Source of the DNA: a virus
Direction: 5' to 3' (one strand)
IMG/VR virus record: IMGVR_UViG_3300032213_001637
Location: 32,001 to 96,000 of that record
Length of the DNA: 64,000 nt
The notes below the pieces were generated by a model. The model searched no databases and was not told the origin of the DNA. It saw only the letters and a program-made list of their open reading frames with translations. The translations under genes were made by a program, and so were the position numbers. Of the stretch, positions 5,412 through 54,234 are shown piece by piece. Numbering within the stretch: position 1 is the stretch's first letter; each line of letters starts with the position of its first letter.

Positions 5412-6196
5412 ACGTACTGAGTAACATCAAAATTTGGGTATACATGTTCAAAGTAATGAAACATATATGTACCCTCAGATGTTTTACGACTCATAATTAA
5501 CGAAGAATTAGGAAGTAAAGTTTTTATATTATTCAATTCGAATTGTTTTTTAAACAACAAATGAGATATACAGTTCTGACACATATCACATAGTGACAAT
5601 ATATCATCGTATACACTACAATAGACCTCAAATGGATGTTGTTTAGCAATACAGAAATTGTCATCTATCCATCCTTCTCCACATCCATATATCTTACCAC
5701 CACAATTAACTACGTGGTCAACGTGGGTAATAATAGAATCATCCGTTAACCGATTTAAATGATCTACATTAAATGGATGTCTCAATCCAACGTCAGGTCG
5801 AATACGAACATAATAGTCATATTTCATACTATTCATACGTTCATACTGTTTAACAATTTTATATAAACGATTTAACTTATAAAGCCAATACAATGTATTT
5901 GAAACTTTATTATCAGTGCTATGTTGATACTTCTTAATACGTTCCTGATGTTCGTTAAAATTATTAACAATACCACCGGTAAAAGGTGTCAGCGTTTCAA
6001 TGTCAGTAATTTTAAAATGTGGTTGAAACGCATCAATACATGATTCAGTATCGTGTTCATCCCAGAAAGATCCAAACATATCAACATTATGACCCGAATC
6101 TAAAAGTGGTTGAATCAAATTGTTTTTATTCAAATCTAACACCAAATTAAACCGTTCGGTTCTTCCTGACATCAAAATAGCAATATTCATAATCAA
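5408..6196 (-). CDS. putative glycosyltransferase-like / glycan-associated protein
   Basis: IAILMSGR N-terminus and YDYYVRIRPD motif typical of proteins in polysaccharide loci. Confidence 0.55.
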   Translation of the reverse strand: MIMNIAILMSGRTERFNLVLDLNKNNLIQPLLDSGHNVDMFGSFWDEHDTESCIDAFQPHFKITDIETLTPFTGGIVNNFNEHQERIKKYQHSTDNKVSNTLYWLYKLNRLYKIVKQYERMNSMKYDYYVRIRPDVGLRHPFNVDHLNRLTDDSIITHVDHVVNCGGKIYGCGEGWIDDNFCIAKQHPFEVYCSVYDDILSLCDMCQNCISHLLFKKQFELNNIKTLLPNSSLIMSRKTSEGTYMFHYFEHVYPNFDVTQYV

Positions 6197-8736
6197 AACT
6201 CAAAAAACTCAGATGCAGCTTTCCAATTTGAATTAGGATACTCCCACTTCAAAACCGTGTAAAAGTCAACAAGTTTACTCTTCAACTCTTGTTCATACAT
6301 GGTATCACGATCCATATACTTGGTGATAATATCCATAATCTGATGAGGATCCGTACCATCTGCCTTCATCGCAAGACACTCAATACCATACTCATTCTGT
6401 TTTAGATACACCCACTTGATTTTCTGACCATGAAATATCGGCGGAATAATCTTTGTCAAATTGAAATGAGTCAACAAATCATTATAGTACAACGACGCTT
6501 TAACCTGTGCAGGAGTACCAGATATAATTTGAAACGGTTGACGACTCTTAGGATTATAGTCAGCCTTAGTGGCTTCACTCTTGAACTTCACACTCGTATT
6601 CTTTGCAAGTTCAATAACACCAAAATTCTTCATGTCCTCTGTGAACTGTAGAATGTTGTTATTGATCGTCTCTTTATCAACATTCTTCAACAGATCAATC
6701 AAAAACTGTTTCATGAAGGTACGAAATTTGGCAGGAAACGACGTTCTAACTACGTCAATACCTTTAACTTCCAATTCGTCACACTCAACACCACCCTTGT
6801 TAATGATGAACTGACAATACCTTTTCTTAGCCAGCCAAAACGATGACTTAGCAATCACCTCTTGTTTTGCATCAAAACGATGATTCTTAACATTAAACAA
6901 ACGAACCGCCATAATGTCAAACATCTGATTAACATACTTCTGAACTTCTTCAGTAACTTTCAGAATAGCTTCAGTCATCTGTTTTTCATCATTCACATCA
7001 ATGTCAGGCATCGTTTTCTTGATAATAGGTAACGCACTGGCAAAACAAGAATCGGTATCAACATAAATGACATAATCGTTTCCATTAGCGTCATCACCCA
7101 ATACATTCTTATAATACTGGTTGATTGCCATATTCGCCGTCTTGATAATACTGACACCACTCAATGTAACTGCTTCAGCGTTGTCCTTATCATAAAAACG
7201 AAACACAGGAAGACCCAAACAACCATAAATGGAGTTTAGCAAGATCTTCTGCACCTTTTGACGTTGATCATAGAACTCATACATTTCCCATTCCTTTGCA
7301 TCAGCGTGTTTCTTAGCCAACTTACGCATTTCTTTACGTTCATTGAACCACTTAATTAGAATACTAGGAATTGTACCTTCTTGACCTTCTCCCTTTGGAA
7401 GTTTGTATACCGCTCCATTACTAGCAACGCTGAGATTGTTTTGAACCAACATTTCGTTAAAGTCCTGAGTAGAATACTTCTGACCACTGAGAATTACTTC
7501 AGTCAACTTACCACGAACAAAATCTTCGGCATTCCAATTTTCAACCTTCGCTATCTTAGTCTCAGGACTAATGTTGAGGCTGATAATGATATTAGGATAC
7601 ATTGATGTAAGGTCCAAGTCAAAAACCCAATCATAACGGCCAGGCACAGGAGGTTTAACATACGCACCTTCAAATCCTTCTTCTCCGTCTTCCAATCGTT
7701 GTTCATATTCTTCACGTCCTTCCAAAGGTTTGTTCGGAGCCACACGACCTTGACGACGCAAATAAATCAATATTGCACCTTCAAGGTAACGTGATGAAGT
7801 TCCAAAGTGTTCATAACCAACGTGTCCGGTATGACAAATACGACGTGCCAGATCAATGAATTGGAGTTTCTTATCAAGCGCCACAACGATCTTAACGTCA
7901 TTCAAGTTATATTCGATATATGTTTGAATGTCATCACGATACAAGTCGTTAAGACTTCCAGTATAAGTGATCTTATCAATATTGACTACCTTTTTACCAA
8001 TAGCACCAAGGGTATAACTCGGTTCATTTTTGCCACTGAACTTCTTGTAGAGTTCAATGTAGTCCATACATGAAACACCTGCTACGACCATTCGTTTGGC
8101 AAAGTTGTTATAATAACACTCATGAATTGGACTCAACCTCTTGGCAAAGTTGACACCCATCACACGTTTGATACGATTGTACAAATAAGGAACGTCGAAT
8201 CCATCAATGTTCCATCCTGTGATGATTGTGGGTTGAATTTCTTCCCATTTATTCATGAAGTGACTGATTAAAGATTCTTCATTATTGAAACTCTGAATAA
8301 TTGTATCATTGGTTTCACTGTCTTGAAGTTTACCTTCCTTATCCAAAATAAACGCTGTGTACTTGGATGTAGCACCATCATACAAAGCGATAGCAGTCAG
8401 TTCCTTATCACCCTCATCAATAATTGGAAATCCACCTTCGGAACTAACTTCAATATCGAAAAACACCACACGATGTCCCTTGGAAGGTTCATCACTGTCT
8501 TCGTAAGCGTCAATCAACACTCTTGTTTCGGGAGGAACGTCTCCTTCAAAGATTGAAGGATCGTTACGGTTGAAGTTTGTAACCTTTTCTAGTTCATCAC
8601 CGTAAACGGAACGATAACGTCCACCTGACTTCTTACGATACGCATACTTAGGTTGGGGAAACGTAACGTATCCCTTTTGATCGTCCCACAGGTGGACGGT
8701 TTCAGTTTTCTTGTCGATATAAATATTTTGATACAT
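6193..8736 (-). CDS. family B DNA polymerase (T4 gp43-like)
   Basis: Exo FFDIE, GWNIDGFD, YNLND; Pol DLTSMYP, KILLNSIYG, YVDTDS, KKRY; no intein seen. Confidence 0.97.
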   Translation of the reverse strand: MYQNIYIDKKTETVHLWDDQKGYVTFPQPKYAYRKKSGGRYRSVYGDELEKVTNFNRNDPSIFEGDVPPETRVLIDAYEDSDEPSKGHRVVFFDIEVSSEGGFPIIDEGDKELTAIALYDGATSKYTAFILDKEGKLQDSETNDTIIQSFNNEESLISHFMNKWEEIQPTIITGWNIDGFDVPYLYNRIKRVMGVNFAKRLSPIHECYYNNFAKRMVVAGVSCMDYIELYKKFSGKNEPSYTLGAIGKKVVNIDKITYTGSLNDLYRDDIQTYIEYNLNDVKIVVALDKKLQFIDLARRICHTGHVGYEHFGTSSRYLEGAILIYLRRQGRVAPNKPLEGREEYEQRLEDGEEGFEGAYVKPPVPGRYDWVFDLDLTSMYPNIIISLNISPETKIAKVENWNAEDFVRGKLTEVILSGQKYSTQDFNEMLVQNNLSVASNGAVYKLPKGEGQEGTIPSILIKWFNERKEMRKLAKKHADAKEWEMYEFYDQRQKVQKILLNSIYGCLGLPVFRFYDKDNAEAVTLSGVSIIKTANMAINQYYKNVLGDDANGNDYVIYVDTDSCFASALPIIKKTMPDIDVNDEKQMTEAILKVTEEVQKYVNQMFDIMAVRLFNVKNHRFDAKQEVIAKSSFWLAKKRYCQFIINKGGVECDELEVKGIDVVRTSFPAKFRTFMKQFLIDLLKNVDKETINNNILQFTEDMKNFGVIELAKNTSVKFKSEATKADYNPKSRQPFQIISGTPAQVKASLYYNDLLTHFNLTKIIPPIFHGQKIKWVYLKQNEYGIECLAMKADGTDPHQIMDIITKYMDRDTMYEQELKSKLVDFYTVLKWEYPNSNWKAASEFFEF

Positions 8737-21502: not shown

Positions 21503-21541
21503 CGGTATACTACAAATCGGTGTAAATGTTACATAAAACTT

Positions 21542-22360: not shown

Positions 22361-22383
22361 TATTTACTATTAAAATAATAATT

Positions 22384-23133: not shown

Positions 23134-23750
23134 ACGAAACATTTTTTGCAGAACATAAAGAGGATCAATTTCTTAGATTAAAATACTTTCCTGATTATAG
23201 TTACAAAGGTACTTTGGTTGAAGTCGGTGGAGCAACTCCCGAGTTTATATCTGTATCTCGTCACTTCACATTAAACGAATGGAGAACAGTTATTGTAGAA
23301 CCAAATCCTACATTTGCTAAACAACACCGTGATATTGGAAATGAAATATACGAATATGCACTATCTGACACTGAGGAAGATGATGTTGATTTTACATTGG
23401 TACATATCACCGGAGGCAATGTCACCGATCACGCATTTTCTTCTTTAAAGATTAAAGACTCATATCAGTCAATATCAAATGGATGGGTGAATAAATTAAA
23501 TAAAACCCAAATTAAAGTTAAACAACGTCGTTTGGACACAATAATTAAAGAAGCGAACATCGAACATATAGACATTCTTTCAGTTGATACCGAAGGTTGG
23601 GAATTAGAAGTTATGAAAGGACTTAGTTTACTTAGACCCAAGGTAATCATGTTGGAAAATCTATTTAATGAAAACTCGTATCGTGAATATATGACCGAAA
23701 GAGGTTATAAGTTTGATACACGAATTAAAGACTGTGACATTTATCTATGA
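23130..23750 (+). CDS. FkbM-family methyltransferase
   Basis: VEVGG, VEPNP, RLDT, IDILSVDTEGWELEVMKG. Confidence 0.88.
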   Translation: MNETFFAEHKEDQFLRLKYFPDYSYKGTLVEVGGATPEFISVSRHFTLNEWRTVIVEPNPTFAKQHRDIGNEIYEYALSDTEEDDVDFTLVHITGGNVTDHAFSSLKIKDSYQSISNGWVNKLNKTQIKVKQRRLDTIIKEANIEHIDILSVDTEGWELEVMKGLSLLRPKVIMLENLFNENSYREYMTERGYKFDTRIKDCDIYL

Positions 23751-24694: not shown

Positions 24695-24697
24695 GTT

Positions 24698-25783
24698 ATG
24701 TACGATTATTTAATTGTAGGCAGTGGTATGTTTGGATCAGTGTGTGCAAGAGAACTCACTGATAAAGGTTACAAGTGTTTGGTGATTGAAAAACGCAATC
24801 ATATTGGTGGCAATTGTTATACTGAAAACAAAGATGGTATTAACATTCACAAGTATGGCGCTCACATATTTCACACATCCAATAAAGAGATTTGGGATTA
24901 TATCAATAAGTTTGCGAAGTTTAATAACTTTGTAAATCATGTCAAGGTCAATTATAACGGTCAAATTTATTCTTTTCCGGTTAACATGATGACACTGCAT
25001 CAAATCTATGGAGTAACCACACCAGAACAAGCAAAAAAGAAACTAGATGAAGTTCGTATTCACAATGAAAATCCAAAGAACTTAGAAGAGTGGATACTAT
25101 CGCAAGTAGGAAAAGAAATATACGAAATATTCATCAAAGGATATACCACAAAACAATGGGGAAGACATCCCGTAGATTTACCATCTTCCATTATTAAACG
25201 TCTTCCTATTCGATTTACCTACGATGATAGTTACTATGGACTTGACTATCAAGGTGTTCCTATCGGTGGTTACACTCAAATATTTGAAAAGTTATTGGAT
25301 GGAATCGAAGTACGGTTGAATGAGGACTATCTTCAAAACAAAGAGTCACTTAACAATGTCGCTAAAAAAGTTATTTATACCGGTTCAATTGATGCATACT
25401 ATAACTACTGTTTTGGAAACTTGAACTACAGAAGTCTAAAGTTTGAAACTGAACGAATTGAAATACCGGATTATCAAGGAAACGCAGTTGTCAACTATAC
25501 AGAACTTCATGTTCCATTTACCCGAATTCTTGAACATAAACATTTTGATCCTGTTAATACAAACTTCACCTATATTACACGTGAATATCCAAGAGAATAT
25601 GGTGAAGGACTTGAACCATATTATCCTATAAATGATAAAGTTAATACACCAATATATGAGAAGTATAAAACATTAACTGAAAAAGAATCGAATGTTATAT
25701 TTGGTGGTCGGTTGGCTGAATATAGATACTATGATATGCATCAAGTGATTGGTTCCGCATTACACACCTGTAAAAAACTATGA
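24698..25783 (+). CDS. glf: UDP-galactopyranose mutase
   Basis: YLIVGSG, HIGGNCY, HKYGAHIFHT, EPYYP, GRLAEYRYYDM. Confidence 0.97.
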   Translation: MYDYLIVGSGMFGSVCARELTDKGYKCLVIEKRNHIGGNCYTENKDGINIHKYGAHIFHTSNKEIWDYINKFAKFNNFVNHVKVNYNGQIYSFPVNMMTLHQIYGVTTPEQAKKKLDEVRIHNENPKNLEEWILSQVGKEIYEIFIKGYTTKQWGRHPVDLPSSIIKRLPIRFTYDDSYYGLDYQGVPIGGYTQIFEKLLDGIEVRLNEDYLQNKESLNNVAKKVIYTGSIDAYYNYCFGNLNYRSLKFETERIEIPDYQGNAVVNYTELHVPFTRILEHKHFDPVNTNFTYITREYPREYGEGLEPYYPINDKVNTPIYEKYKTLTEKESNVIFGGRLAEYRYYDMHQVIGSALHTCKKL

Positions 25784-26685
25784 AAATACAAATTGTTACA
25801 CACCTTCTTCCCCACGAATTAGATGAATTTGAACGTCAATTGACCGTATTGAGTCAAGAAATGATTGATTGTCATGAAGTTACCTTGGATGTTACATTGA
25901 ATTTGAACACAGTTGATTGGAACAAAACAAAAATTCCAAAGGATTTCTTTATTGAGAAGTTCGAATCATTGTCAAAGTACGTTACTCATACCAGTTGGGC
26001 AAGAAACTACATCTTTGATGTAGATGACCATGGTACTTGTAGAGGGATCAACGACAAACGTCGTAATAGCATACGTAAATACGGTAAAGATGTAGACGCA
26101 TTTATATACTTGGATTCAGACTTGGTATTTCCTCCAGCAACTTTGTCATATTCGATACACTGTGCTACTCAGGTAAAGAACAAATATTATATTATTTCAC
26201 CTCAAATCACCAAAATTTGGGATCAAACATGGGACCATTTGGTAAATCATCAGTTCATTAACAACAAATATGGAAGTGAAAAGACGATCAATCCATATTT
26301 TGAAGTCAACCGTAAATCATATTTGAATCACATCAATCTTATCAAATGTGATCCTACCAAATTTGGTGGTGGATGGTTCAATTTAATTAGTTCCAACCTA
26401 TTAACATTTACAGATATACCCGATGCACTTGGACCCTATGGCGTTGATGATACCTATGTTATGTTCGCGGCTCAAATCATGAAAGTCAATAATATTGATT
26501 TCCAACAATATTTAATGGAACACATTATTGTAGCTGAGAACTATTTATTGAGACACAATTCATACAAAGATTACATAACCTATTTCGAAGACAGAAACAA
26601 CTTCAAAAGCAAGGCGGAGGCATCATTAGGCGACTGCCTAAGAGACTTTGTTAACAAAAACCAATACACATTCAAACATCTATGA
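25780..26685 (+). CDS. putative GT-A glycosyltransferase
   Basis: FIYLDSD DXD motif, YGVDD. Confidence 0.6.
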   Translation: MKIQIVTHLLPHELDEFERQLTVLSQEMIDCHEVTLDVTLNLNTVDWNKTKIPKDFFIEKFESLSKYVTHTSWARNYIFDVDDHGTCRGINDKRRNSIRKYGKDVDAFIYLDSDLVFPPATLSYSIHCATQVKNKYYIISPQITKIWDQTWDHLVNHQFINNKYGSEKTINPYFEVNRKSYLNHINLIKCDPTKFGGGWFNLISSNLLTFTDIPDALGPYGVDDTYVMFAAQIMKVNNIDFQQYLMEHIIVAENYLLRHNSYKDYITYFEDRNNFKSKAEASLGDCLRDFVNKNQYTFKHL

Positions 26686-27330: not shown

Positions 27331-28293
27331 TTATAGATAACTTTCAATAGTTGTCTTTAAAGCGTTTGAAAAGTCTGTAAGGTTCATTTGTCCAAACTTC
27401 TGTTCATAATCAAAGGTCTCAATCGAATAACGCAAGTCATGTCCCTTGCGATCTTCTACATAGTTGATATAATCATAGTCGATCTTAGTGTTAGTAACAT
27501 CTTCATAAACAGATTTAATATGTTCAATCAACTCAAGATTGGTTAATTCATTCTTTCCGCCAATCAAATACTGACTTCCTACATCCCCAGTTTCAAGAAC
27601 GTCCCAAATACAGTTAACGTGATCTTTTACATAAATCCAATCACGTACATTTTGACCAGTTCCATATACAGGAATTGGTTCACGGTTTTTCAACTTACGA
27701 ATACAAGTTGGAATTAACTTTTCACCATTTTGTCTTGGTCCAAAATTATTGCTACAATTAGTAATGATAGCAGGTAACTTATATGTCTTAACATAACTAC
27801 GTACAAGTAAGTCACTTGCAGCCTTTGTGGCAGAATATGGACTGTTGGGTCGATATGGACTATCTACAGTAAATGAAGACTCCTTTGCATTCAATGATCC
27901 ATACACTTCATCAGTGGATATATGAATAAACTTCTCTACCTTTCCATAATCATATATCGCTTTAATCAAATTAAATGTTCCCAAAACATTGGTGGTAACA
28001 AACGGATCGGGAGAATAAATTGAATTATCAACATGAGTTTCTGCGGCAAAGTTTACTACATGAGTAATCTCAAACTTATTCAACGTCTGCCACAGAATAA
28101 CACCATCGTTAATATCCGCAACATAATGTTTATATCGTGGATCAACATTAAACTGTAAATTCTTATTGGCAGCATATGTTAACTTATCAAAGTTAATGAT
28201 ATTGTCAATATCAGGATTGTTCAATAACTTCTCTACAAAATGTGATCCTATAAAACCACATCCACCTGTGACTAAAACGTTTTTCTTATTCAT
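27331..28293 (-). CDS. rfbB: dTDP-glucose 4,6-dehydratase
   Basis: TGGCGFIG, DKLTYA, FAAETHVD, STDEVYG, YSATK, RKGHDLRY. Confidence 0.95.
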   Translation of the reverse strand: MNKKNVLVTGGCGFIGSHFVEKLLNNPDIDNIINFDKLTYAANKNLQFNVDPRYKHYVADINDGVILWQTLNKFEITHVVNFAAETHVDNSIYSPDPFVTTNVLGTFNLIKAIYDYGKVEKFIHISTDEVYGSLNAKESSFTVDSPYRPNSPYSATKAASDLLVRSYVKTYKLPAIITNCSNNFGPRQNGEKLIPTCIRKLKNREPIPVYGTGQNVRDWIYVKDHVNCIWDVLETGDVGSQYLIGGKNELTNLELIEHIKSVYEDVTNTKIDYDYINYVEDRKGHDLRYSIETFDYEQKFGQMNLTDFSNALKTTIESYL

Positions 28294-29549
28294 ATAATTT
28301 CAAATGTGGGACACGGAACAATAAAATGACCACCAGCCATCAAATACGGTGCTTCTCTCCTCTTGAATTCATCAATAAAATGCCAAGGCAAAATCAAAAG
28401 ATAATCTGGTCTAGCCTTTCTCATTTCATTTTCAGAATATATAGGAATGTCAGTGCCAACTGTTCTTAGTCCAAATTTATATGGACTACGTTCAGCCGCA
28501 CCATCAATCAACCGTTTATCCAATCCAAAGTACTGTAATAATGTATTTCCCTTAGTAGATGCTCCGTATACCCAAATCTTTTTACCTTTCAACTTCTCTT
28601 GTTTGATGAAGTTATACGTTTTAATCTTCAACTCTTGAAGTTTCTTATAGAAATCCATGTAAAATTCAATAGTGTTTGCACCAATCTTGTTTTCATATTC
28701 CAAAATAGAGTTTACACGATAACGAGCGACATCACGATATGGCGCAGTAGCGAAAGAAGTAACCTTAGCGACATCTTTCTGTAGATATACTCTAAATGAT
28801 CCACCGTTAACATCATTCAACTCACAATCAACAATTTTAAACTTGGCTCTATCAGCAACATGTTTAAATGAATGTAATGAATAGTACATTAAATGTTCAT
28901 GACAAATGTTATCAAATGCCATTTGTTGAATCATCAACGGAGTATAACTCATTTGAACCACAAACATTCCTTCATCACCCAACACGTCATAAATCTCATT
29001 CATGAACGCAACTGGGTCAGGCAAGTCATAGAACATCGCAATACATGTGATTACGTCACACTTACGTCCTTTAAAAATACTTCGATCAAATGCGTCCTTA
29101 GAGAAGTAGTCTTGAATTACCTGATCAGCAAACTTAACACTCTCTTTGGTATATGAATCATCCGCTGGATCAATTCCTAGACGAGCATATGGTGTGGGAA
29201 CATAGTTCAACAACGTTCCATCGTTACACGCAATATCCAACCATAACGGAGTATCACATGGAATGTGCACATTGATACAACTATCAACCACGTTTTTAAG
29301 TTGATTACGCATGGTTTGATTAGTACCAGAACGATACCAATACTGACCATACATTTTGTTTGGATCGGCGCCCTGTTCTAACTGTACCAACTTTGATGTC
29401 GGTGAAAACATCAACTTCATTTCAGACTTATAATCGTCAGATGGTTGTTTTTTTACAAAGTTTGAAATGAACAAATTACCCAACGTAAACAACGGAGTTA
29501 ATGTATCATTTGATACCCGACAATTTGTAACTTTTTCAGTATATTTCAT
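28290..29549 (-). CDS. NDP-sugar C-methyltransferase (3-C-methyltransferase-like)
   Basis: LDIACNDG, FDNICHEH, NGGSFR, YGASTKGNTLLQ, LPWHF. Confidence 0.88.
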   Translation of the reverse strand: MKYTEKVTNCRVSNDTLTPLFTLGNLFISNFVKKQPSDDYKSEMKLMFSPTSKLVQLEQGADPNKMYGQYWYRSGTNQTMRNQLKNVVDSCINVHIPCDTPLWLDIACNDGTLLNYVPTPYARLGIDPADDSYTKESVKFADQVIQDYFSKDAFDRSIFKGRKCDVITCIAMFYDLPDPVAFMNEIYDVLGDEGMFVVQMSYTPLMIQQMAFDNICHEHLMYYSLHSFKHVADRAKFKIVDCELNDVNGGSFRVYLQKDVAKVTSFATAPYRDVARYRVNSILEYENKIGANTIEFYMDFYKKLQELKIKTYNFIKQEKLKGKKIWVYGASTKGNTLLQYFGLDKRLIDGAAERSPYKFGLRTVGTDIPIYSENEMRKARPDYLLILPWHFIDEFKRREAPYLMAGGHFIVPCPTFEII

Positions 29550-29550
29550 A

Positions 29551-30411
29551 TTATTTCCAGTTCTCTAAACAGTAATCTAATGCTTCATCTACAGTTCTCA
29601 TTTTAATTCCAGTTGATAACAATTTTTGATTGTTCATAACACAGTTGGAACGTGGTGTTTTTGCGGCTGTGGTATAAAACGATTCTTCATTATCAAAAAA
29701 TTCGAAGACTTTATCTTTAGCAATAGTCTTTTGCATTTTTTCAATAACTTGTTTTGTAGTTATAAATCCAGTATTAGTAACGTTGTAAATACCATACGGT
29801 ACATCTCGCGTAATAGTTTCAATACAAGCACGTACAAACTCTTGTTTATTAGATATAGAATTTTCAGCATCTAATAGTTTTTTATAATTCAACATTTTGG
29901 ATAGATAATTACGAGGATTGTCAATATCTTCAAATGGAATTCTCAATCGCCAAATATAATGTTTAGGAGAATTCTTTATGATGATATTTTCCGCCATAGC
30001 CTTTGTTCCACTATAAAAGCTACAATTGTTTTGTTCAAAACTGAAATTGGGAGGATCAAATTCGGTAAACGGACTTCCATCACTACGCCGTCCAGTATAA
30101 ATACACCCACTTGACACATGTGCAAACGTAATATTATTGTTTCCACAAAACGTTGACAATATAGTAGGTAGTACAACATTACCATAAATGGTGTTATGTT
30201 TATCAGTTTCACACGCATCTACATTTGGTTTGCCAGTGTATCCAGCACAATTAATGATTGCAGTTAACTTTAACGATTTGTGTAGAAGTTGTAATTGTGT
30301 GTATGTAATGTCCCTAGAAGGAATATGTGTACGAGTTGGAATTCCTTTTTGAAATAGTTGTTTATAAAACTCTTTTCCAACATAACCATTTGAACCTAAT
30401 AATAAAATCAT
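29551..30411 (-). CDS. NDP-4-keto-6-deoxyhexose reductase (RmlD-like, NRS/ER-type)
   Basis: LLGSNGYVG, NCAGYTGKPNVDACE, SSGCIY, YSGTK, WRLRIP. Confidence 0.85.
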   Translation of the reverse strand: MILLLGSNGYVGKEFYKQLFQKGIPTRTHIPSRDITYTQLQLLHKSLKLTAIINCAGYTGKPNVDACETDKHNTIYGNVVLPTILSTFCGNNNITFAHVSSGCIYTGRRSDGSPFTEFDPPNFSFEQNNCSFYSGTKAMAENIIIKNSPKHYIWRLRIPFEDIDNPRNYLSKMLNYKKLLDAENSISNKQEFVRACIETITRDVPYGIYNVTNTGFITTKQVIEKMQKTIAKDKVFEFFDNEESFYTTAAKTPRSNCVMNNQKLLSTGIKMRTVDEALDYCLENWK

Positions 30412-30426
30412 AACCGGGAATATATA

Positions 30427-45298: not shown

Positions 45299-46681
45299 TC
45301 AGTCTTTGTCATCTTCTATGTGAGCATTCCACTTATTGCTAAGTGCCTTCTTCACAAGATTCTCACTGTCACCCATTTCATTGATAACTGACATACCATC
45401 CTTGGAGTTTTCAGCATAAATCTGAATATCACCACATCCGGCATTCATTCGACTCGGAAATGTCATACCATCGGGACCAAAACGGTTCTTGATGATATGA
45501 AACCGTGCAGTATTCGATACTTTATCGGTAACTTTACGGCTCAATGACATAACAAAGTCTGCCGTCATGATCTTTCGATACGAATCGGAGATGTTATTTG
45601 CCTGAATAATGTCTTCATCCATAGCAGCACGGTTACTTTGTGAAGCACTCCATATAGGAACCTGAAGTTCGCCAGCAACACTACGAAGTTCTTCATAAAT
45701 ACCACCAGCTTCACTATAACTATTGCTGTTACGTTCACTCTGATAAGGACGTAGAATGTCAGCATAATCGACAATAATCAAATCGATCTTACTTCCCAAC
45801 ATCGCAATACGTTCCGTATGCATCTTCAAGTGATGGGCACTAACAGTTTTGATAGGAAAGTACTTGATGAACAGTTTACCGGGAACTTGTTCAATCTTCT
45901 TACGAACGATATCAATGTTATTACGAATGTTTTGAAAGTCAATTCCGGTAAAACATGCATCATAACGAAGACCCACATAGTTTTCATTCAACTCAAGAGT
46001 AAAATGAACCACGTTCTTTCCTTGCTTCATGGCTTCAGCACCAATCTTTGCCAAAACCCAACTCTTGCCACTACCAGCACAAGCAGTGATAATTCCAAGT
46101 TCACCGCCTGCCAATCCACCATCCATGATGGTATCTACTTCAGTCCAGTTGGTCTTAACAGTGTTACGTGCCATAACACTCATACGTTTATCAACATCAG
46201 TCATATAATCATGACCAATGTTACGTTCCATACCAGCCTTCATTGCACTGTCAACCAAAGACTTGACTTTTTCATAATTTCCAGTCTTGAGATGTTCAAC
46301 ACTATCAATAATAGCGTTCTTTAGCTTCTGACTCTTACAGAACTCCAAGTATTGTTCCTTGACGAACTTAAGATCACTATCAGTGATCTTTTGATATACG
46401 TTTCTTAGTTGTGAAACGATTGATTCCTTGAGTACCGAGTTTTCAATACTATCAACCTTAATCTTAAATACATTAAGGGTAGGCAAATCCTTATATTGCA
46501 TAAAGTATGCAACGGTTTGCTTTACAATCCATTGATGAGCATCAGATTCAAACGATGTGGGGTCAATGATGTCCGAAAGTCTTTCCAAAAAAGACTTATC
46601 GCTGAGAATTCCTGAGATACACTTGATCTGGAATTCTGATCCAAACTTCTTCAAATTGTCGATTACATGGTTTTCGCTCAT
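45299..46681 (-). CDS. replicative DnaB-like helicase (T4 gp41-like)
   Basis: GELG..AGSGKS, TLEL, IVDYAD, ASQSNR, KNRFG. Confidence 0.93.
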   Translation of the reverse strand: MSENHVIDNLKKFGSEFQIKCISGILSDKSFLERLSDIIDPTSFESDAHQWIVKQTVAYFMQYKDLPTLNVFKIKVDSIENSVLKESIVSQLRNVYQKITDSDLKFVKEQYLEFCKSQKLKNAIIDSVEHLKTGNYEKVKSLVDSAMKAGMERNIGHDYMTDVDKRMSVMARNTVKTNWTEVDTIMDGGLAGGELGIITACAGSGKSWVLAKIGAEAMKQGKNVVHFTLELNENYVGLRYDACFTGIDFQNIRNNIDIVRKKIEQVPGKLFIKYFPIKTVSAHHLKMHTERIAMLGSKIDLIIVDYADILRPYQSERNSNSYSEAGGIYEELRSVAGELQVPIWSASQSNRAAMDEDIIQANNISDSYRKIMTADFVMSLSRKVTDKVSNTARFHIIKNRFGPDGMTFPSRMNAGCGDIQIYAENSKDGMSVINEMGDSENLVKKALSNKWNAHIEDDKD

Positions 46682-46757: not shown

Positions 46758-47822
46758 TTATCTCACCAACGTGGTCAACTTACCAAAACACTCGTTGAGC
46801 CAAATTTGGTAGTTGGGGATGTTATTCCACATTTTGTCTTCTGTGACCAACTTGGAAAATCCAACTCTGTCCATCTTCTTTATTGGCATATCCAAGATTT
46901 CATTGATACGAAGTTGTGAGAAACTTTGAATCTCCGTATCCTTCAATTGCATCAACGTATAGTTACGTTCGACAATATCCTTGTTTTCAAGAATATTACG
47001 ATAGAGCTTATATTTGCTCTGATTGTTTTCACAATAAGTGTAAATCTCTTGCAGATCTACATGTCTACTTTCGGCAAAAAACGGAAAACACTTGATAATA
47101 GTTTTTAGTCCAGCGCCATTAATTCCATCGATGTTATCTGACACATCACCCTCCAAAACTCTATACCAAATATAATTCTGACAGCTAACACCGTATTCAT
47201 TTAGAATTTCAGCACAACCATACAGTTTCTTTTTGGTAGGACTCCATACTTTAATTTTATCACTTGCCAATTGTAGAAAATCTTTATCAGCACTCATGAT
47301 ACTTACATTACTATCTTTATAATATTGTTGAGCAACATATGCAATTGTGTCATCTGCTTCAATATGATCGATTGCCATGGTTGAAATAGGCAAACAATCC
47401 AAATAGTGAACAGAACGCATTAACTGCGATTTCATATTCTTTTCTTCCAAATCACTAGTTGAAAGTTCTGAGTATGCTCTGTTTAATCGTATTTTTGTGT
47501 GTCGTTTATGTTTGTATTGTGGGTAAATCTTACGGCGTTTCATACTTCCGCCATTACCATCAAAAATAATAACACACCTAGTAGGGTTAATTAATTTGAT
47601 TGCATAACCCACACTCTTTAAAAATCCGGCAATGCCACCCGTGTGAAGACCATCTTCATTCATGGATGGCATTACCGAATATGCGCGAATAAATGTATTT
47701 AGCCCGTCCACCAAGAGAATATCCGAATTTTGACTTCGGTTAGACAAAGTATTCTTTTCTTCTTGTGAAATATTCTCAAAAATAGAGAACAACTTCTTTT
47801 TTTCCTCTTGGTTAAAACTCAT
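46758..47822 (-). CDS. 5'-3' exonuclease / T4 RNase H-like flap nuclease
   Basis: LLVDG, FDG, YK..R, EADD, SADKDF.Q, GDVSDNI.G. Confidence 0.93.
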   Translation of the reverse strand: MSFNQEEKKKLFSIFENISQEEKNTLSNRSQNSDILLVDGLNTFIRAYSVMPSMNEDGLHTGGIAGFLKSVGYAIKLINPTRCVIIFDGNGGSMKRRKIYPQYKHKRHTKIRLNRAYSELSTSDLEEKNMKSQLMRSVHYLDCLPISTMAIDHIEADDTIAYVAQQYYKDSNVSIMSADKDFLQLASDKIKVWSPTKKKLYGCAEILNEYGVSCQNYIWYRVLEGDVSDNIDGINGAGLKTIIKCFPFFAESRHVDLQEIYTYCENNQSKYKLYRNILENKDIVERNYTLMQLKDTEIQSFSQLRINEILDMPIKKMDRVGFSKLVTEDKMWNNIPNYQIWLNECFGKLTTLVR

Positions 47823-47828: not shown

Positions 47829-49016
47829 TTATTCTCCGCCAACTTCTTCTGCGTCCTCGGAAGAATCAACTTCCACATCTTCTCTAATCTCACTGTCAGG
47901 TGACTTGTACTTCATGATAGTTACTTCAGAAATCTTCTGATACAACTCTTCACGAAGTTCGGCATTAACCTTTACATCCTTAGCAAATGTCTTGGTATCA
48001 ATCTTAACAACTTCACCACTGTTCTTGATGTAATTGTATGGCGACTTAGCACCAGTGATAATTGAATGTTTCTTCAACACTTCAATCCAATTGCCACAAT
48101 TATCAATACCACTATCAAAGTAAATATTGAAATCAGCGTATCTCATAGGCGGACCCATACGATTTTTAACAACCACCGCTCGAGTCTTAACGCCAATGTG
48201 AATAGGTTCACCATTTTGAGTAATCTTCAAAGCACCCATACCCTTCAGTCGAAGACGTACACTAGCATGATACTGAATTGCCTTACCACCACTGGTAATA
48301 TACTTATCGCCAAACATCGCTGCCTGAAGGTTGACACGTAGTTGATTCGTGAAAACCAATGCAATACGTTGCTTACCAATCATGTCGTTAATCTTACGCA
48401 TCGCCTTGGAAATAATGATGGCCTTTCCAGTTGCATAACCATCCTTACCGTGATCACTTTCCAACTCGGCCTTAGTAGATGCACCAGCAACACTGTCAAC
48501 TATAATTGTGACAAGTCGATCTTTATTAGATTTACGAGCTTGAGAAATCAATAGTTCGATCTTTTCAAAGATGTCTTCCACTGTATTTGCGGTAACATAC
48601 AACATCTTTGGAATATCAACACCAATTGCTGTAAGAAAATCTTCAGAAACGGACTGTTCTGTATCAATAAAGATAGCAAGTCCACCCTTCTTTTGAGTTT
48701 CAGCAAGCAAATGTGCAGCCAACAAACTCTTACCGGACGCTTCAAGTCCAGTAATTTCGATAATTCGTCCCACCGGCATACCGGCATGTGGTCGATTTGA
48801 AATTGCGAGATCCAAGATATCACAACCTGTACTAATCCAATCCGTAATTGTAGATGGATCTTCTTTTTGATCCAAGAAAAACGCACACTTACCTGCATCT
48901 TTATTGGCCTTGTTTAACGCATCAGCGATAGATTCAATTAGTTCATCTCTCTGTGATGTACTATCATGTGTAACATGAGTTGATACTTTTTTCTTTTTTG
49001 GTGTTTCGTCTGACAT
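47829..49016 (-). CDS. RecA/UvsX recombinase
   Basis: ISTG..LD, GRIIEI.GLEASGKS, IDTE, VDSVA, TNQLR, TSGGKA, KNR. Confidence 0.95.
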   Translation of the reverse strand: MSDETPKKKKVSTHVTHDSTSQRDELIESIADALNKANKDAGKCAFFLDQKEDPSTITDWISTGCDILDLAISNRPHAGMPVGRIIEITGLEASGKSLLAAHLLAETQKKGGLAIFIDTEQSVSEDFLTAIGVDIPKMLYVTANTVEDIFEKIELLISQARKSNKDRLVTIIVDSVAGASTKAELESDHGKDGYATGKAIIISKAMRKINDMIGKQRIALVFTNQLRVNLQAAMFGDKYITSGGKAIQYHASVRLRLKGMGALKITQNGEPIHIGVKTRAVVVKNRMGPPMRYADFNIYFDSGIDNCGNWIEVLKKHSIITGAKSPYNYIKNSGEVVKIDTKTFAKDVKVNAELREELYQKISEVTIMKYKSPDSEIREDVEVDSSEDAEEVGGE

Positions 49017-49080: not shown

Positions 49081-49923
49081 TTAACTATTGAACAAATTGT
49101 CAAACGCCTTGGTGAGGTCGTCTGTATTTGTCTTTGCCACACCAGCAGTAGGAGACTTACTAGTTGCCTTTGCCGGAGCAGCAGCTTGAATAGCTGCGGC
49201 AGCGGCGACTGGCTGAGTATCGTCTTCGTCAATAACCGCGTTGTTAACAGTCTCGGCTGGAGCGTTCTCCGGATTTAGCCAAGAGGTCATAACCTCCTTG
49301 AGTTCCTCATACTTGGGTTCGGGAAACAAATCAAGAATGTCAGTCTGATTCTTGATAGAATCAATCATCTTGTTATCCTTAGGATCAACTGCGGGTGTAG
49401 CGTTAGGCTTCACACGAATTGAAGTTTCAGGATAGTTCTTACCACTCTCCTCAGCGGTACGGAACTCAACAACGATATCACGTCCGGACGCGAGATCGGT
49501 AATATCACCGTAATCGGGATCGGCCATAACAGATAGAATTTCCTGATAGACCTGCTTTCCGAATCCCCAGAACTTCACACCTTCATGCTCTTCACCACGA
49601 ACGATGACAGGAGCGAATGTGCGCATCTTGGGTTCCATCTTACGACCAGTCTGCCAATCTTCCTTAGAACCAGTCTTCTTGAGACGGTTGCTAAATTCGA
49701 CGATAGGATCCGGACGATTAAAACTATCTGGAGACAGATAAGTCTTGTTATTGATGCCGTAATGAAACTTGAGTTCGATGAACGGAGCATCAGGTTGGAA
49801 CTTATAGGGAACGATACGAATTGTTTGCTTACCCGGCTTTGGCTTCCAAATGAGTTGGGTCTTGGAATTCGTGTTTGAAAGAGAGTTCAAACGGCTCTTA
49901 ATCTTCGACAAGTCAATTGCCAT
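49081..49923 (-). CDS. single-stranded DNA-binding protein (T4 gp32-like)
   Basis: WKP..G..IRIVP, GVKFWGFGK, DITD..GRD, low-complexity linker and acidic/aromatic tail; beside RecA. Confidence 0.85.
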   Translation of the reverse strand: MAIDLSKIKSRLNSLSNTNSKTQLIWKPKPGKQTIRIVPYKFQPDAPFIELKFHYGINNKTYLSPDSFNRPDPIVEFSNRLKKTGSKEDWQTGRKMEPKMRTFAPVIVRGEEHEGVKFWGFGKQVYQEILSVMADPDYGDITDLASGRDIVVEFRTAEESGKNYPETSIRVKPNATPAVDPKDNKMIDSIKNQTDILDLFPEPKYEELKEVMTSWLNPENAPAETVNNAVIDEDDTQPVAAAAAIQAAAPAKATSKSPTAGVAKTNTDDLTKAFDNLFNS

Positions 49924-50039: not shown

Positions 50040-50432
50040 TCAACTTATTATATCGAAAATTTTGAGGGGAATTATTTTAACGGAGATCTCATTTGTTATA
50101 ATCAATGAGTTATTATAATACTCCCAATTTAACTGATAAGTTTTATCAAAAACGCCATTATTTTCCTCGGTGATGAGTTTGTTCATGGCATTTAACGTAT
50201 ACAAAGTATTGGTTTGTTTTTTACGATGTATAGAAATAGTATTAGGCAGCTTTTTACGAGCGAACTCACTATTTAGTATATTATATGTAAGATACAATTC
50301 GTTGTTGTTTTTCTCATTATTAAACACAAAAATTTTGTTGTTTGTTAATGTATAAAACGATTTAACTTGTTCCACTAATAGTTTATAGTCCGTTGGAACA
50401 GAAAATGTACAAAGTAATTGTGTGTCTTTCAT
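50040..50432 (-). CDS. phage hypothetical protein
   Basis: QLLCTF, TISIHRKKQTNTLYTLNA. Confidence 0.75.
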   Translation of the reverse strand: MKDTQLLCTFSVPTDYKLLVEQVKSFYTLTNNKIFVFNNEKNNNELYLTYNILNSEFARKKLPNTISIHRKKQTNTLYTLNAMNKLITEENNGVFDKTYQLNWEYYNNSLIITNEISVKIIPLKIFDIIS

Positions 50433-51124
50433 CTAACAGATAATATTGTTGTTTTGTGGCTATTTACGTTATACCACTCACATCCAACCAATTGACCGTC
50501 AACATTATACCAACGGTTTTTATTACGAATCCAATTGTTGGACGTTGCTTCTTCCAACGTAAATTCCATTGTTAAGATTTTTTCGATTTCCGCTGCGTCT
50601 TTTTCTTTTTGATCGGGACTTCTGGTGGCAAGATCGTCGCTTTGACTTCCGGTTTGACTTCCGGTTTGACTTCCGGCTGAACTTCCTCCTTGCATTGGGT
50701 CTTGCCCCTGAACTTGTTGATTAGGTTGTTGAGCACCTGGCTCAATTTCGATAGGTTTTTCATTTGGTGATGTTGGTTCTTGTACTGGTTGTGCAGGAGC
50801 GTTAAAATCCAAATTGGTTTGACCCTTTGTTGGATCTTCTTCAAAATGGGTTCTACGCTTTAGCGCACGTTGTTTATATTCCGGGTTCGGAAATGTAACC
50901 AATATACCCTTGGAGTTATAAGCTTGTCTCTCTGGGTATTTACCTTCAATAACTTTATTTGCATATTCAACAACTTCTCCTTTTGGAATTCCCATTTCAG
51001 AGAATTTTTCTCTTAGGATTTCCATGTGATCGTTGTTAAAAATATCAAATATGCCGTCGTCAACTCGTCTATCAAGACAAAGTTCAGACAACAACGCAGA
51101 AACGTTCTTATAAATCTTTTTCAT
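50429..51124 (-). CDS. hypothetical protein with Q/P/G-rich linker
   Basis: 231 aa; 12-bp repeat x3 at 50641..50676 (GSQT). Confidence 0.7.
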   Translation of the reverse strand: MKKIYKNVSALLSELCLDRRVDDGIFDIFNNDHMEILREKFSEMGIPKGEVVEYANKVIEGKYPERQAYNSKGILVTFPNPEYKQRALKRRTHFEEDPTKGQTNLDFNAPAQPVQEPTSPNEKPIEIEPGAQQPNQQVQGQDPMQGGSSAGSQTGSQTGSQSDDLATRSPDQKEKDAAEIEKILTMEFTLEEATSNNWIRNKNRWYNVDGQLVGCEWYNVNSHKTTILSVR

Positions 51125-51125: not shown

Positions 51126-52802
51126 TTATTTCTTTAAGTCTACGGATGCACTGTCTACTTTTGCTAATGGCATGGTGATCAACGAGAAGTTTAGAAACAA
51201 ATAATCATCGTTTCCGATTGTTAACGAAGCAGCCTGATCCGTGGTTCCACCTTCTCCACAAAGAGTTGGTCGATATGCAAAAATTGGATCCTTGGCATTT
51301 TTTGGAAGTGGCAAGTTAGGATTAAACCAAACATGTCCACCTTCAGTGGTTTTAATCAAAAGATGTCGTTCATTTGAAGCGTTTGGTGAATTTGATTTAA
51401 TCCAATTAATAGATCCCATTTTACTCGGATCACGTGCTGTCATATCTTCTGGATTAATTACGTTCATTTCAACGTTTGCAGTTGTATGCATTAATATACA
51501 ACAATTGTTTTCACTAAATGGTGCTTTGCCATCAATATCAAATTCGGGACCATATATTGTCTTGCCGGCAATAATTCTGGTTGCTTTTGTTCCATCCAAG
51601 AAATCAAGATGTCCTGAAAATTTGCTACCACCCATGTAATACAAATACTTTTTGCCAGTAGATGGTTTTGTTACAAATTTATAAAACGCATTACGAAAAT
51701 CTGAAGTTATGGCAATATAAAATTTAGTTCCTTGTCCAAGTGTTTCAAGTACAGACTTTCCATTAATAGTGATGGCTTTATTTTGTTCATCAAATGTAGT
51801 TGTCTTCGGATTAATCGTTAATGGTGGAACCCGATAATGCCTCTTAATTCCTTCTATGAAAGATACCTTAATACTATCCCATATCATTTTAACTTTTCCA
51901 TCGGTGAATGCCTTATCTAATCCTAACATTCCAGAATACTGTGGGAAATCTACTCTACGTACTGACTGTACTTTTACCTTTGGATTAAATTCCGCACCTT
52001 TAAAGGAAATCCAAAATACATCAGTTTCTTGATTGCACAATGCAATGTCTGCTTTAGCATCCTTACCTTTATTTAATCTTTTAGCGTAATCAACTTCAAC
52101 TCCAGTGGCAACTCGTTCATTTTGGTCCCAAAAATGCAACCGCATTGGAGTTTTTTCTGGATTATTTTCTTTAAACCACACGTTCATATGATCAACTGCA
52201 ATTTCTTCTTTTTCCTTGCCAGGCGATTTAGATACTACACCCAAAGTAAACAAATCGGGGTGTTCTTTTATCAACTTAAAAAACAACATAAGTTGTCCGA
52301 AAGCTATACCAGTATCAGTTTTAATACCATGTGTAGTGTTGATATTTGAAACTCGGGTACCTTTATTTGTAGCAATTCTTAATGAACTGTTACTATGTAA
52401 TACTTTTAATCCCCCTTCTTCTTTTCCAATTTTTACGACATCACTCATTGTTAACGACGCATCTTGTTTACGATCTTTAGGAAACAATGTTGGTGGTTGA
52501 TTTCTTGCGTTTGAAAGATCAAGTTTTCTTAAATCGTCATCGTCAAAAAATACACGTGCTTGTTCTGGTTTACCACGCCCAATTATTTTATTGATTAATG
52601 TGATATCTTCCTCGGATAATCCGTTTGATGGGGTTTTACTTTCAATTTCGTTGACCAATTTTGGTATTGAAAAATAAGAATCGTAACCACAATTTTCGAT
52701 TGCGGTAACCAACAAATCATGATCTAATTTGTCAATACCGCCAGTTTTTGAAAGTACCGAATACTCTAAAAGTATATCTTTGATGATTTTATCTTTATTC
52801 AT
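51126..52802 (-). CDS. putative PD-(D/E)XK-fold nuclease-like protein
   Basis: EEIA..KADIAL..WISFK..QYSG resembles a restriction-endonuclease-like active site. Confidence 0.5.
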   Translation of the reverse strand: MNKDKIIKDILLEYSVLSKTGGIDKLDHDLLVTAIENCGYDSYFSIPKLVNEIESKTPSNGLSEEDITLINKIIGRGKPEQARVFFDDDDLRKLDLSNARNQPPTLFPKDRKQDASLTMSDVVKIGKEEGGLKVLHSNSSLRIATNKGTRVSNINTTHGIKTDTGIAFGQLMLFFKLIKEHPDLFTLGVVSKSPGKEKEEIAVDHMNVWFKENNPEKTPMRLHFWDQNERVATGVEVDYAKRLNKGKDAKADIALCNQETDVFWISFKGAEFNPKVKVQSVRRVDFPQYSGMLGLDKAFTDGKVKMIWDSIKVSFIEGIKRHYRVPPLTINPKTTTFDEQNKAITINGKSVLETLGQGTKFYIAITSDFRNAFYKFVTKPSTGKKYLYYMGGSKFSGHLDFLDGTKATRIIAGKTIYGPEFDIDGKAPFSENNCCILMHTTANVEMNVINPEDMTARDPSKMGSINWIKSNSPNASNERHLLIKTTEGGHVWFNPNLPLPKNAKDPIFAYRPTLCGEGGTTDQAASLTIGNDDYLFLNFSLITMPLAKVDSASVDLKK

Positions 52803-52852: not shown

Positions 52853-54196
52853 TTAGAAAGATACTGGAATCATGTCATGATAGTTCTTTCCTGTATAACA
52901 CTTGGTTGGAAATCCTTGGTTCTCCATCAATCGTATAATTTCAGACAAAATACCCTGTTTACCCTCACTTTTATGTACATCAAACAACATAGAATCATAA
53001 GTGTACAAAATAGGTTTGGTCTGTTTATCACTCAAATAACGATTCACATCCATCAAACTCTGCATCGAATATTCAGTTTCAGACGCTTGAAGAATATAGT
53101 TGAACAACTTGTTCGGATTGGAATCCTTCAAGTGATTTGACGTTATAGGACGTTTAAAAATGGGAGTCTCAATATATCCAAAACTCTTAAAGAAATCCCA
53201 CCGGTGCTCAATATATTCACGGATCTTCGCAAAATAAGGAATTTTAAGGTATTCATCAGAAATTGAACCATACAATTGTTGGAACGTTAACGTTTTCGCC
53301 TTCTTCAACTGATCTTCAGAAAGATCTTCGGATTTGAAGTAATATTGACCCAAATATGCATATATGTTAACATTTTTAGGAAAATCATATCGAATCAATT
53401 TTCCAATAATATGCGGATGATACGCGCTATAATCCAACATCACCAATATTCCATCATCACCAAACCTTGATACAAAACTCTTACGACATTCGTTTTCTTT
53501 GTTCAACGCGGAATAGTTGATACCGCCAAAACGATTGCTGGGACGACCCGTTGATGTAAAAATGTTATACTCGGTGTATATACGGTTGTTTACTACCAGA
53601 TGTTTCTTATCAGGGAAGTGTTTCTCAAACTCAACCATATCAACGTACAATCCATGTGATTCAATAGATTGTAGAGTTTCTATAATCGATGTATTAACGT
53701 TGTGATATGAATCATCATACGTCTTTTTAATATGAACCTCTACATCTTCACATACGTCCAAAAATCGTGATATGTGATTGTTAACAGGAATTATCTTGTT
53801 GAGTTCATTATGATGATTGTACTTGTTTCTAAAGAATAGGTGTGCCGAAGTATCATATTCGTCCTGATCAATAATCTCTCCTGATTCAATAAATGATATC
53901 AATGACAAATCATGAAGATTCTGAATCTTCAACAAATGAAGTACTTTACGTTTAGAAAAACAAAAGATACGTCCACGAATCGTATTTAACAGATTGATAA
54001 TATCATCCTTAGATACAAACTCAACCGAATCATATGTGTCAATATGAATCGAATACCATTTGTTGTTTGACACCACCTTGATCAACACCAAACACGGTTC
54101 GTCTGACGCGGAATGTCTAAAATCAGATAAAGGCACCACATCCAAAATGATGTCCTTCTTTCCAATCTCAGATATAATTTTTTTAACAAGATTCAC
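52853..54196 (-). CDS. divergent family A DNA polymerase-like protein (thumb deleted)
   Basis: E.HGL.VD, TSTGRPS, motif A LDYSAYHP, motif B AKTLTFQQLYG, NY.LQA, motif C YTYDS. Confidence 0.85.
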   Translation of the reverse strand: MNLVKKIISEIGKKDIILDVVPLSDFRHSASDEPCLVLIKVVSNNKWYSIHIDTYDSVEFVSKDDIINLLNTIRGRIFCFSKRKVLHLLKIQNLHDLSLISFIESGEIIDQDEYDTSAHLFFRNKYNHHNELNKIIPVNNHISRFLDVCEDVEVHIKKTYDDSYHNVNTSIIETLQSIESHGLYVDMVEFEKHFPDKKHLVVNNRIYTEYNIFTSTGRPSNRFGGINYSALNKENECRKSFVSRFGDDGILVMLDYSAYHPHIIGKLIRYDFPKNVNIYAYLGQYYFKSEDLSEDQLKKAKTLTFQQLYGSISDEYLKIPYFAKIREYIEHRWDFFKSFGYIETPIFKRPITSNHLKDSNPNKLFNYILQASETEYSMQSLMDVNRYLSDKQTKPILYTYDSMLFDVHKSEGKQGILSEIIRLMENQGFPTKCYTGKNYHDMIPVSF

Positions 54197-54205
54197 TCAC
54201 CTATA

Positions 54206-54234
54206 ACCATATCGTAACGATTTCAAAATGTCAA
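54206..54234 (-). promoter_or_regulatory. sigma70-like promoter
   Basis: TTGACA-N17-TATGGT, 9 nt before GTG 54196. Confidence 0.7.

Follow-up and report, generated by a model that had tools for sequence, protein, structure and literature searches.

A freshwater phage with a T4-type replication set carries, beside its regular family-B replicase, a second DNA polymerase gene whose product we read as an accessory, distributive enzyme for short-patch synthesis, serving Okazaki maturation and/or recombination and repair; we put the probability of this reading at roughly 0.55. By homology, the gene is a member of divPolA1, a published family (Yutin et al. 2024, Virol J 21:200, PMC11348598), and its product appears to be a compact, catalytically competent family-A DNA polymerase that combines a dead exonuclease domain, palm, and fingers with an 18-residue thumb stub. 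The truncated thumb, the dead exonuclease, and the coexistence with a regular polymerase are already known for the family (PMC11348598). What we add are the fixed substitutions at the positions of E710, R754, H881, and E883, a conserved promoter, the co-occurrence with a small protein (p130), a check for primases, and a wider spread of the family. All positions refer to the window, the whole 64,000-nt stretch analyzed here, which lies inside a 109-kb IMG/VR virus record with an estimated completeness of only 35%. The stretch recurs in metagenomes of freshwater and lakes, contributed by about ten studies.

Results

A Predicted Klenow-Like Polymerase with a Truncated Thumb

The 447-aa ORF matches the Pfam family DNA_pol_A at 1.9e-10, above the curated cut-off, as well as a PHROG described as "DNA polymerase." The window also holds a full PolB at 6193-8736, so that both polymerases described in an earlier, sequence-only reading of this DNA are borne out. 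The gene and its parts are as follows.

52853..54196, minus strand: divPolA1 gene, 447 aa, GTG start (stop codon included)
53717..54196, minus strand: N-terminal 3'-5' exonuclease fold, about residues 1-160, catalytic acidic residues replaced (structure alignment and hhalign)
53585..53638, minus strand: thumb stub, residues 187-204
53411..53434, minus strand: motif A, DYSAYHPH, with catalytic D255 and with H260 at the Klenow E710 steric-gate position
53267..53308, minus strand: motif B/O-helix, with K301, F305, Y309, and G310 kept and L297 at the R754 position
52991..53005, minus strand: motif C, YTYDS, with Y400 at H881, catalytic D401 at D882, and S402 at E883

An AlphaFold model of the protein built on 34 relatives (pLDDT 90.6, pTM 0.88) superimposes over about 410 residues on the large fragments of Pol I from M. 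smegmatis, Bacillus, and Thermus, with Z 26-27 and an rmsd of 3.5-3.8 A, and Foldseek places it against Klenow at E 4e-19. All of the top structure matches are family-A DNA polymerases (DNA polymerases I). As the alignment with the large fragments runs over residues 1-444, the protein is predicted to have the complete build of a "Klenow-like" enzyme, with both the exonuclease fold and the polymerase. A difference lies in the thumb: while 105 residues (549-653) separate ..VKID from RVHTSY in E. coli Pol I, only 18 residues (187-204) separate ..YVD from RIYTEY in divPolA1, 87 fewer. HMMER and hhalign alignments to Klenow place this gap identically, and the model has only two short helices at the site (187-193 and 195-200). 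The near-absent thumb, previously estimated at about 17 aa, is thus 18 aa by our count, and the structure prediction shows no intact thumb in its place. The lack of clear exonuclease motifs is likewise borne out by the hhalign comparison with Klenow, in which D355, E357, and D424 correspond to V20, P22, and S81 and the stretch holding Y497/D501 (Exo III) is gapped, although at this divergence the palm can be aligned with more certainty than the exonuclease domain. The exonuclease domains of Bst and Taq are inactive as well.

To map the active site, we used two profile alignments to Klenow that agree with each other, one by HMMER and one by hhalign (252 relatives, probability 98.7%). Shared with the Pol I large fragments (Klenow, Bst, KlenTaq) are the catalytic aspartates D705 (D255) and D882 (D401) and the motif B residues K758 (K301), F762 (F305), and Y766 (Y309), and R668 and Q849 are kept likewise. 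Five positions differ: E710 is His (H260), R754 is Leu (L297), H734 is Tyr (Y279), H881 is Tyr (Y400), and E883 is Ser (S402). The mapping confirms what had been seen by eye in the motifs, that is, a His at E710 in DYSAYHPH, YDS in place of HDE in motif C, and retention of both catalytic Asp and of the K/F/Y of motif B. Set against a Klenow-type enzyme, divPolA1 is missing the full thumb (helices H-I), the gate Glu, the HDE motif, and the O-helix Arg.

The residue E710 has been called universally conserved among family-A enzymes; in Klenow it positions the sugar and gates rNTPs, its replacement by Ala or Gln produces mutators, and E710A eases the accommodation of rNTPs about two-fold (PMC3715850). 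Given this universal conservation and the mutator phenotypes, the nucleotide and sugar selectivity and the fidelity of divPolA1 probably differ from those of Pol I. Another possibility, and a point against the reading given at the outset, is that without R754 and E883 the enzyme polymerizes only very weakly. Removing no more than the tip of the thumb is cited as making Klenow bind DNA less well and as reducing its processivity and frameshift fidelity (Minnick et al. 1996, cited in PMC2441791), and by analogy, as the thumb is missing, it is reasonable to expect that divPolA1 is non-processive; its synthesis would also proceed without proofreading.

The Substitutions Are Conserved across a Large Family

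A single search at E<=1e-5 retrieved 2490 divPolA1 relatives of 245-783 aa. Our representative library comprises 1013 clusters at 50% identity, and IMG/VR contains at least 594 divPolA1 loci. Carriers include complete genomes of 296-369 kb and one genome of 484 kb. For conservation, we considered 252 full-length relatives, reaching down to about 30% identity. D255, D401, K301, R218, N227, and the family-specific E373 are invariant in this set, and Y400 is found in 250 of the sequences. The His at the gate, H260, recurs in 249 of the 252, so the altered gate noted in the single sequence extends across the aligned homologues. The position of S402 (E883) is Ser, Ala, or Gly throughout, and that of R754 is Arg in only 4 sequences and hydrophobic in the divPolA1 studied here. 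The thumb stub measures 11-32 aa in every one of the 252, and none of them is intermediate in having a full thumb or a Glu at the gate. Because the catalytic residues, the gate His, Y400, and the short stub are kept across these relatives, the gene is under strong purifying selection. Decay to a pseudogene was considered and rejected, the conservation being too strong.

The assignment to divPolA1 follows from a comparison with the prototype, gene 1 of Flavobacterium phage vB_FspM_immuto (28.4% identity, E 4e-44, 93% query coverage, tblastn), which is annotated as "DNA polymerase family A," and from the presence of the palm Asp, the truncated thumb, the replaced exonuclease aspartates, an extra regular polymerase, and downstream replication genes. 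The paper that named the family with immuto as prototype lists 14 phages of 155-190 kb, reports a truncated thumb, replaced exonuclease aspartates, a conserved palm, and conserved downstream genes, notes that the regular polymerase encoded alongside may belong to family A, B, or C, and concludes that divPolA1 is probably an active polymerase involved in replication (PMC11348598). The words "steric" and "ribonucleotide" are absent from its text. A literature search for the name divPolA1 returned only that paper and its preprint, and the 19 subfamilies into which family A was reclassified in 2023 include no divPolA1-like group (PMC10201439). Outside the family, our search had its nearest matches in PolAs of SPO1/K-type phages, at 22-25% identity.

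A Conserved Promoter and Gene Order

The surroundings of the gene are those of a replication module, with the following features.

54206..54234, minus strand: sigma70-type promoter-like site, TTGACA-17 nt-TATGGT
51126..52802, minus strand: 558-aa ORF (p558), filling the variable slot that separates divPolA1 from the next conserved gene
50429..51124, minus strand: 231-aa conserved operon gene (p231)
50040..50432, minus strand: 130-aa conserved small protein (p130), always between divPolA1 and gp32
49081..49923, minus strand: gp32-like ssDNA-binding protein
47829..49016, minus strand: UvsX/RecA recombinase
46758..47822, minus strand: stand-alone 5'-3' exonuclease (FEN/RNase H type; homologue of the Pol I N-terminal domain)
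45299..46681, minus strand: DnaB/gp41-like replicative helicase
33317-34243: UvdE UV endonuclease, 19 kb from divPolA1
6193..8736, minus strand: regular family-B replicase (T4 gp43-like PolB; Pfam DNA_pol_B and its exo domain; phrog_262, 1.4e-168)
1819-2787: gp44-like clamp loader, 3.4 kb from PolB

The genes for the helicase, ribonucleotide reductase, FEN, UvsX, and gp32 all fall within 41.8-49.9 kb of the window. The phage also encodes sugar-nucleotide and nucleotide-metabolism genes; for the sugar genes, no link to the divPolA1 operon was found.

The promoter-like site is the sole match to TTGACA-17-TATGGT on the minus strand between 45 and 64 kb. A plain promoter scan of the region gave no overall enrichment (38 sites versus 36.5 expected), and it is the conservation of its position in relatives that gives the site its weight: in 44 of 61 distinct upstream regions from relatives, the pattern TTGAC(A/T)-N16-18-TAnnnT begins at a distance of 27-38 nt ahead of the start codon, compared with 1% of background windows. 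This supports the proposal that the gene has a sigma70 promoter of its own, and a promoter held at a fixed distance from the start codon points to divPolA1 as the first gene of a transcription unit read by the host RNA polymerase. The -10 element comes so close to the GTG, with its end only 10 nt away, that the mRNA would be almost leaderless; we would expect an early transcript that starts 0-4 nt ahead of the start codon. Pieces of divPolA1 occur in contigs from two metatranscriptome libraries, a weak hint of expression given that DNA carry-over is possible. One such contig, from a relative of about 95% similarity, spans 53574-54226 and so reaches about 30 nt upstream of the start codon; as contigs define no 5' end, it weighs neither for nor against a leaderless mRNA, and parts of the gene not covered by such contigs carry no meaning.

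We analyzed synteny in 79 IMG/VR loci. As far as each of them reaches, the genes lie on one strand and share a single order: three large tail-like genes, (p125), divPolA1, the variable slot, p231, p130, gp32, UvsX, FEN, DnaB, and ribonucleotide reductase. The order in immuto, Mel-JY01, and LR756508 is divPolA1, p130, gp32, UvsX, FEN, and DnaB, and p231 was not detected in these three records. Identity drops to 40% in the p558 slot, compared with 75-90% in its flanks, and p558 is missing from many relatives, which places it outside the conserved core. Searches of Pfam, PHROGs, NCBIfam, and PADLOC gave no match for p558, p231, or p125, and searches of Pfam, PHROGs, and NCBIfam gave none for p130 or p818. 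In the ESM Atlas, p558 had only a sub-threshold lead (0.89) to restriction-endonuclease clusters. The upstream 125-aa gene, p125, was rejected as a partner of divPolA1, as it belongs with the tail-like block that precedes divPolA1 and is upstream of the conserved promoter.

The small protein p130 is more highly conserved than divPolA1 itself. It was found in 6 of 50,697 phage records, exactly those that hold a whole gene of the short, divPolA1 type. Its predicted structure (pLDDT 91.6) has a beta-alpha-beta, ferredoxin-like alpha/beta fold, for which fold searches returned only generic ferredoxin/RRM/ACT-like matches (best PDB Z 5.3) and no OB-fold match. Foldseek found nothing at E<=0.001, and profile searches of PDB sequences and the ESM Atlas were also empty. 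A complex prediction for divPolA1 and p130 scored 0.00, under the mark, a value that weighs neither for nor against binding.

Replicase and Primase in the Phage and Its Relatives

Each of the eight genomes that we checked, that of this phage among them, encodes a full-size polymerase. PolB is found in this phage, Mel-JY01, LR756508, and three complete genomes of 296-369 kb; immuto has no PolB, and its full-size polymerase is a canonical PolA of 778 aa. The retention of divPolA1 beside either PolB or PolA supports its being an accessory enzyme that is kept whatever the replicase, and the replicase of this phage would be PolB together with its clamp loader. The comparison is also in favor of the earlier judgment that the enzyme is not the replicase: the same gene heads the operon with either type of polymerase, and here PolB is found beside the clamp loader.

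The observation that no primase gene is visible in the window holds, and we found none in the rest of the 109-kb record either. This absence says little, since the record is 35% complete and relatives carry a primase. In all six large or complete relatives checked, we identified an orthologous protein of 306-327 aa with a Toprim match (33-46% mutual identity), three of the six also matching a CxxC..CxxC zinc-ribbon signature; by these features, it is classified as a gp61/DnaG-type primase. The lineage is not primase-deficient.

Discussion

All of the observations in the sequence-only reading hold, while its interpretation, that of a non-processive enzyme possibly accepting rNTPs or modified nucleotides for primer synthesis, gap filling, or base modification, is supported only in part. 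Primer synthesis is weakened by the Toprim primase orthologue of the large or complete relatives, and base modification is without support. The reading that we prefer is that divPolA1 carries out short, distributive DNA synthesis on intermediates prepared by its gp32, UvsX, FEN, and helicase partners. The transcription unit would continue from divPolA1 via two conserved genes, p231 and p130, to gp32, UvsX, FEN, and the DnaB-like helicase, and it is because a nuclease, an ssDNA-binding protein, a recombinase, and a helicase appear to be co-transcribed with the polymerase that short-patch synthesis suggests itself. The enzyme may fill gaps after primer removal by FEN, and it may also, or instead, extend or fill recombination and repair intermediates. 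In the former role, it would amount to a Pol I split into a polymerase gene and a nuclease gene; unlike in Pol I, the 5'-3' nuclease of this phage is encoded separately, 5 kb downstream. The rewired pocket (E710 to His, R754 to a hydrophobic residue, H881 to Tyr, and E883 to Ser) is held fixed by selection. Counting against short-patch synthesis, T4 and the phages close to it complete Okazaki maturation and replicate in a recombination-dependent manner, yet they are not known to use such an enzyme. Also, plain gap filling needs no change at the near-universal residues E710, R754, and E883, and their replacement hints at a more specialized substrate.

That hint can be taken further, to a specialized polymerase whose substitutions at E710, E883, and R754 allow ribonucleotides or modified nucleotides, for instance, in a Pol alpha-like short RNA/DNA extension of primase-made primers before hand-off to the replicase, or in non-canonical insertion. 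The near-fixation of the gate His, the small residue at E883 in all relatives, and the rarity of Arg at R754 all agree with this, and the "universally conserved" E710 is the steric gate of Klenow, its replacement by Ala easing rNTP entry (PMC3715850). The phage has sugar-nucleotide and nucleotide-metabolism genes, but for the sugar genes no link to the operon was found; a bulky His could be as good a gate against the 2'-OH as Glu; and F762 and Y766 are kept and the best structural matches are DNA polymerases I. In single-subunit RNA polymerases of the T7 type, motif C reads HDS, which speaks for a special substrate. T7 RNA polymerase has a length of about 880 aa, and divPolA1, at 447 aa, is far shorter. 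On balance, we consider such a specialized polymerase unlikely, and the more specific version, an rNTP- or non-canonical-nucleotide-using enzyme that extends or makes primers at the head of the replication operon, slightly more doubtful still. A damage-tolerance enzyme of UV-exposed aquatic phages, exonuclease-free and distributive with a relaxed site and working in translesion synthesis or repair with UvdE, FEN, and UvsX, strikes us as unlikely, too. Its features would include the lost exonuclease residues and the missing thumb, E710 substitutions in Klenow are mutators (PMC3715850), the phage encodes UvdE and the locus occurs in freshwater and lake metagenomes, and APEX, accessory family-A subfamilies with sealed exonuclease sites, have been linked to UV tolerance (PMC10201439). 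Yet divPolA1 heads a core replication and recombination operon and not a repair cluster, UvdE being 19 kb away. The family-A translesion enzymes Pol theta and Pol nu retain the gate Glu, and their thumbs have inserts, not deletions, which is a further argument against a translesion role.

Two more readings concern the start and the bulk of replication. A family-A polymerase turned into a primase by a small partner has a precedent in CCPol-MP of SCCmec (PMC7581432, PMC10061031), and divPolA1 resembles CCPol-MP and the Pol-SSB pairs in being an accessory, trimmed family-A polymerase of a mobile genome, near small conserved proteins and an SSB gene. Within the phage collection, p130 goes strictly together with the short gene of divPolA1 type; this and the lack of a primase in this window and record would fit de novo chain initiation with such a partner, but the record is largely incomplete and the relatives encode a gp61-type Toprim primase. 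Furthermore, in CCPol the exonuclease domain is absent and both E710 and F762 are retained (PMC7581432), and its partner has an OB fold (PMC10061031), whereas divPolA1 retains a complete exonuclease fold of about 160 aa and has a His gate, a p130 modeled with a fold other than OB, and a classical primase in its relatives. We therefore regard a primase-polymerase of this kind as very improbable. Still harder to credit is that divPolA1 itself is the replicase of this lineage, with other factors lending it processivity and the full-size polymerase serving another purpose. The idea draws on the conserved replication module around divPolA1 and the variable context of the regular polymerase among carriers; Yutin et al. 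interpret the context as pointing to involvement in replication proper and find it less obvious what the "regular" polymerases do (PMC11348598). Against it stand the lack of proofreading and of a thumb in divPolA1, the close match of PolB to T4 gp43 and its location 3.4 kb from the clamp loader, and the presence of a full-size polymerase in every genome checked. A second divergent family-A polymerase without a canonical thumb is also found beside PolB in barbaviruses; this divPolA2 differs in having a novel N-terminal globular domain and a variable context and in resembling RNA polymerases, too (PMC11348598), while divPolA1 has an exonuclease fold, a fixed replication context, and DNA polymerases I as its top structural matches.

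The family is large, with thousands of sequences mainly from freshwater and marine phages of up to jumbo size, and it departs from several near-universal rules of family A in its thumb, E710, R754, and HDE motif. This makes divPolA1 a cheap and promising target for enzymology, regarding both how DNA is gripped without a thumb and how the gate His handles the sugar, and a polymerase that is small, free of exonuclease activity, and unusual in its sugar gate could serve as a tool enzyme. If the enzyme did turn out to use ribonucleotides or non-canonical nucleotides in extending or making primers, it would represent a third, hitherto unrecognized polymerase role in T4-type replisomes. More generally, divPolA1 may reveal why large phages retain a second polymerase whatever their replicase.

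The variable slot and its conserved neighbors

Between divPolA1, the small family-A polymerase gene, and p231, the 231-aa operon gene, the window carries a long open reading frame.

51126-52802, minus strand: 558-aa ORF filling the slot that separates divPolA1 from p231

This slot is variable: in the same relatives, the 558-aa ORF retains approximately 40% identity, in comparison with 75-90% for the flanking genes. In other clades, the slot holds an unrelated insert or is empty, and where it is empty, p231 starts approximately 1.35 kb past the start of the polymerase. Searches of Pfam, PHROGs, NCBIfam and PADLOC found no family match for the ORF, and restriction-endonuclease clusters in the ESM Atlas provide a sub-threshold lead only. 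Variation is also found within p231 itself, as contigs of other strains (two runs) are missing 24 nt in its Gly/Ser/Gln/Thr-rich repeat (50638-50665, minus strand); the repeat is thus a low-complexity linker of variable length.

50040-50432, minus strand: p130, a 130-aa protein

The p130 gene is located directly upstream of gp32, the ssDNA-binding protein gene, without exception. It is more conserved than the polymerase, with the motifs QLLCTF..LTYN..HRKK..LYTLNAMN, and is confined to six of 50,697 phage records, those with a whole divPolA1-type (short) gene. The predicted model of p130 shows, with confidence, a ferredoxin-like fold without a clear relative.

Promoter and mRNA leader

54206-54234, minus strand: predicted sigma70-type promoter

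The promoter is conserved and also found in the upstream regions of relatives (loci L023-L097). Because its -10 element ends approximately 5-10 nt ahead of the start codon, its position implies that early mRNA would be leaderless, or nearly so, in many members of the phage lineage.

PolB and other regions of the window

4026-5411, minus strand: HAD-type phosphatase and nucleotidyltransferase fusion, second gene downstream of PolB, the family-B replicase
9794-26685, plus strand: long block of about 17 ORFs, each 200-440 aa, all on one strand
27331-31266, minus strand: sugar-nucleotide pathway genes, beside the ORF block
33317-34243, minus strand: UvdE-type UV damage endonuclease (Pfam 5e-40)
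35110-36291, minus strand: phage-encoded homologue of DruA, the Druantia defence protein (DUF4338; Pfam 8e-22, PADLOC 2e-20)

In LR756508.1, a 484-kb uncultured phage carrying divPolA1, the match to the window PolB is broken into four pieces (259363-267281, loci L013-L016) across approximately 8 kb with two long frames, which suggests that the gene is interrupted by inteins or introns, or is split. The sugar-nucleotide pathway comprises an RmlA-like nucleotidyltransferase, an RmlD-like reductase, a 4,6-dehydratase/epimerase and a C-methyltransferase, and together with the ORF block may form a glycan or DNA-modification island. The phage UvdE may bear on a repair role for the small polymerase and FEN, the stand-alone 5'-3' exonuclease.
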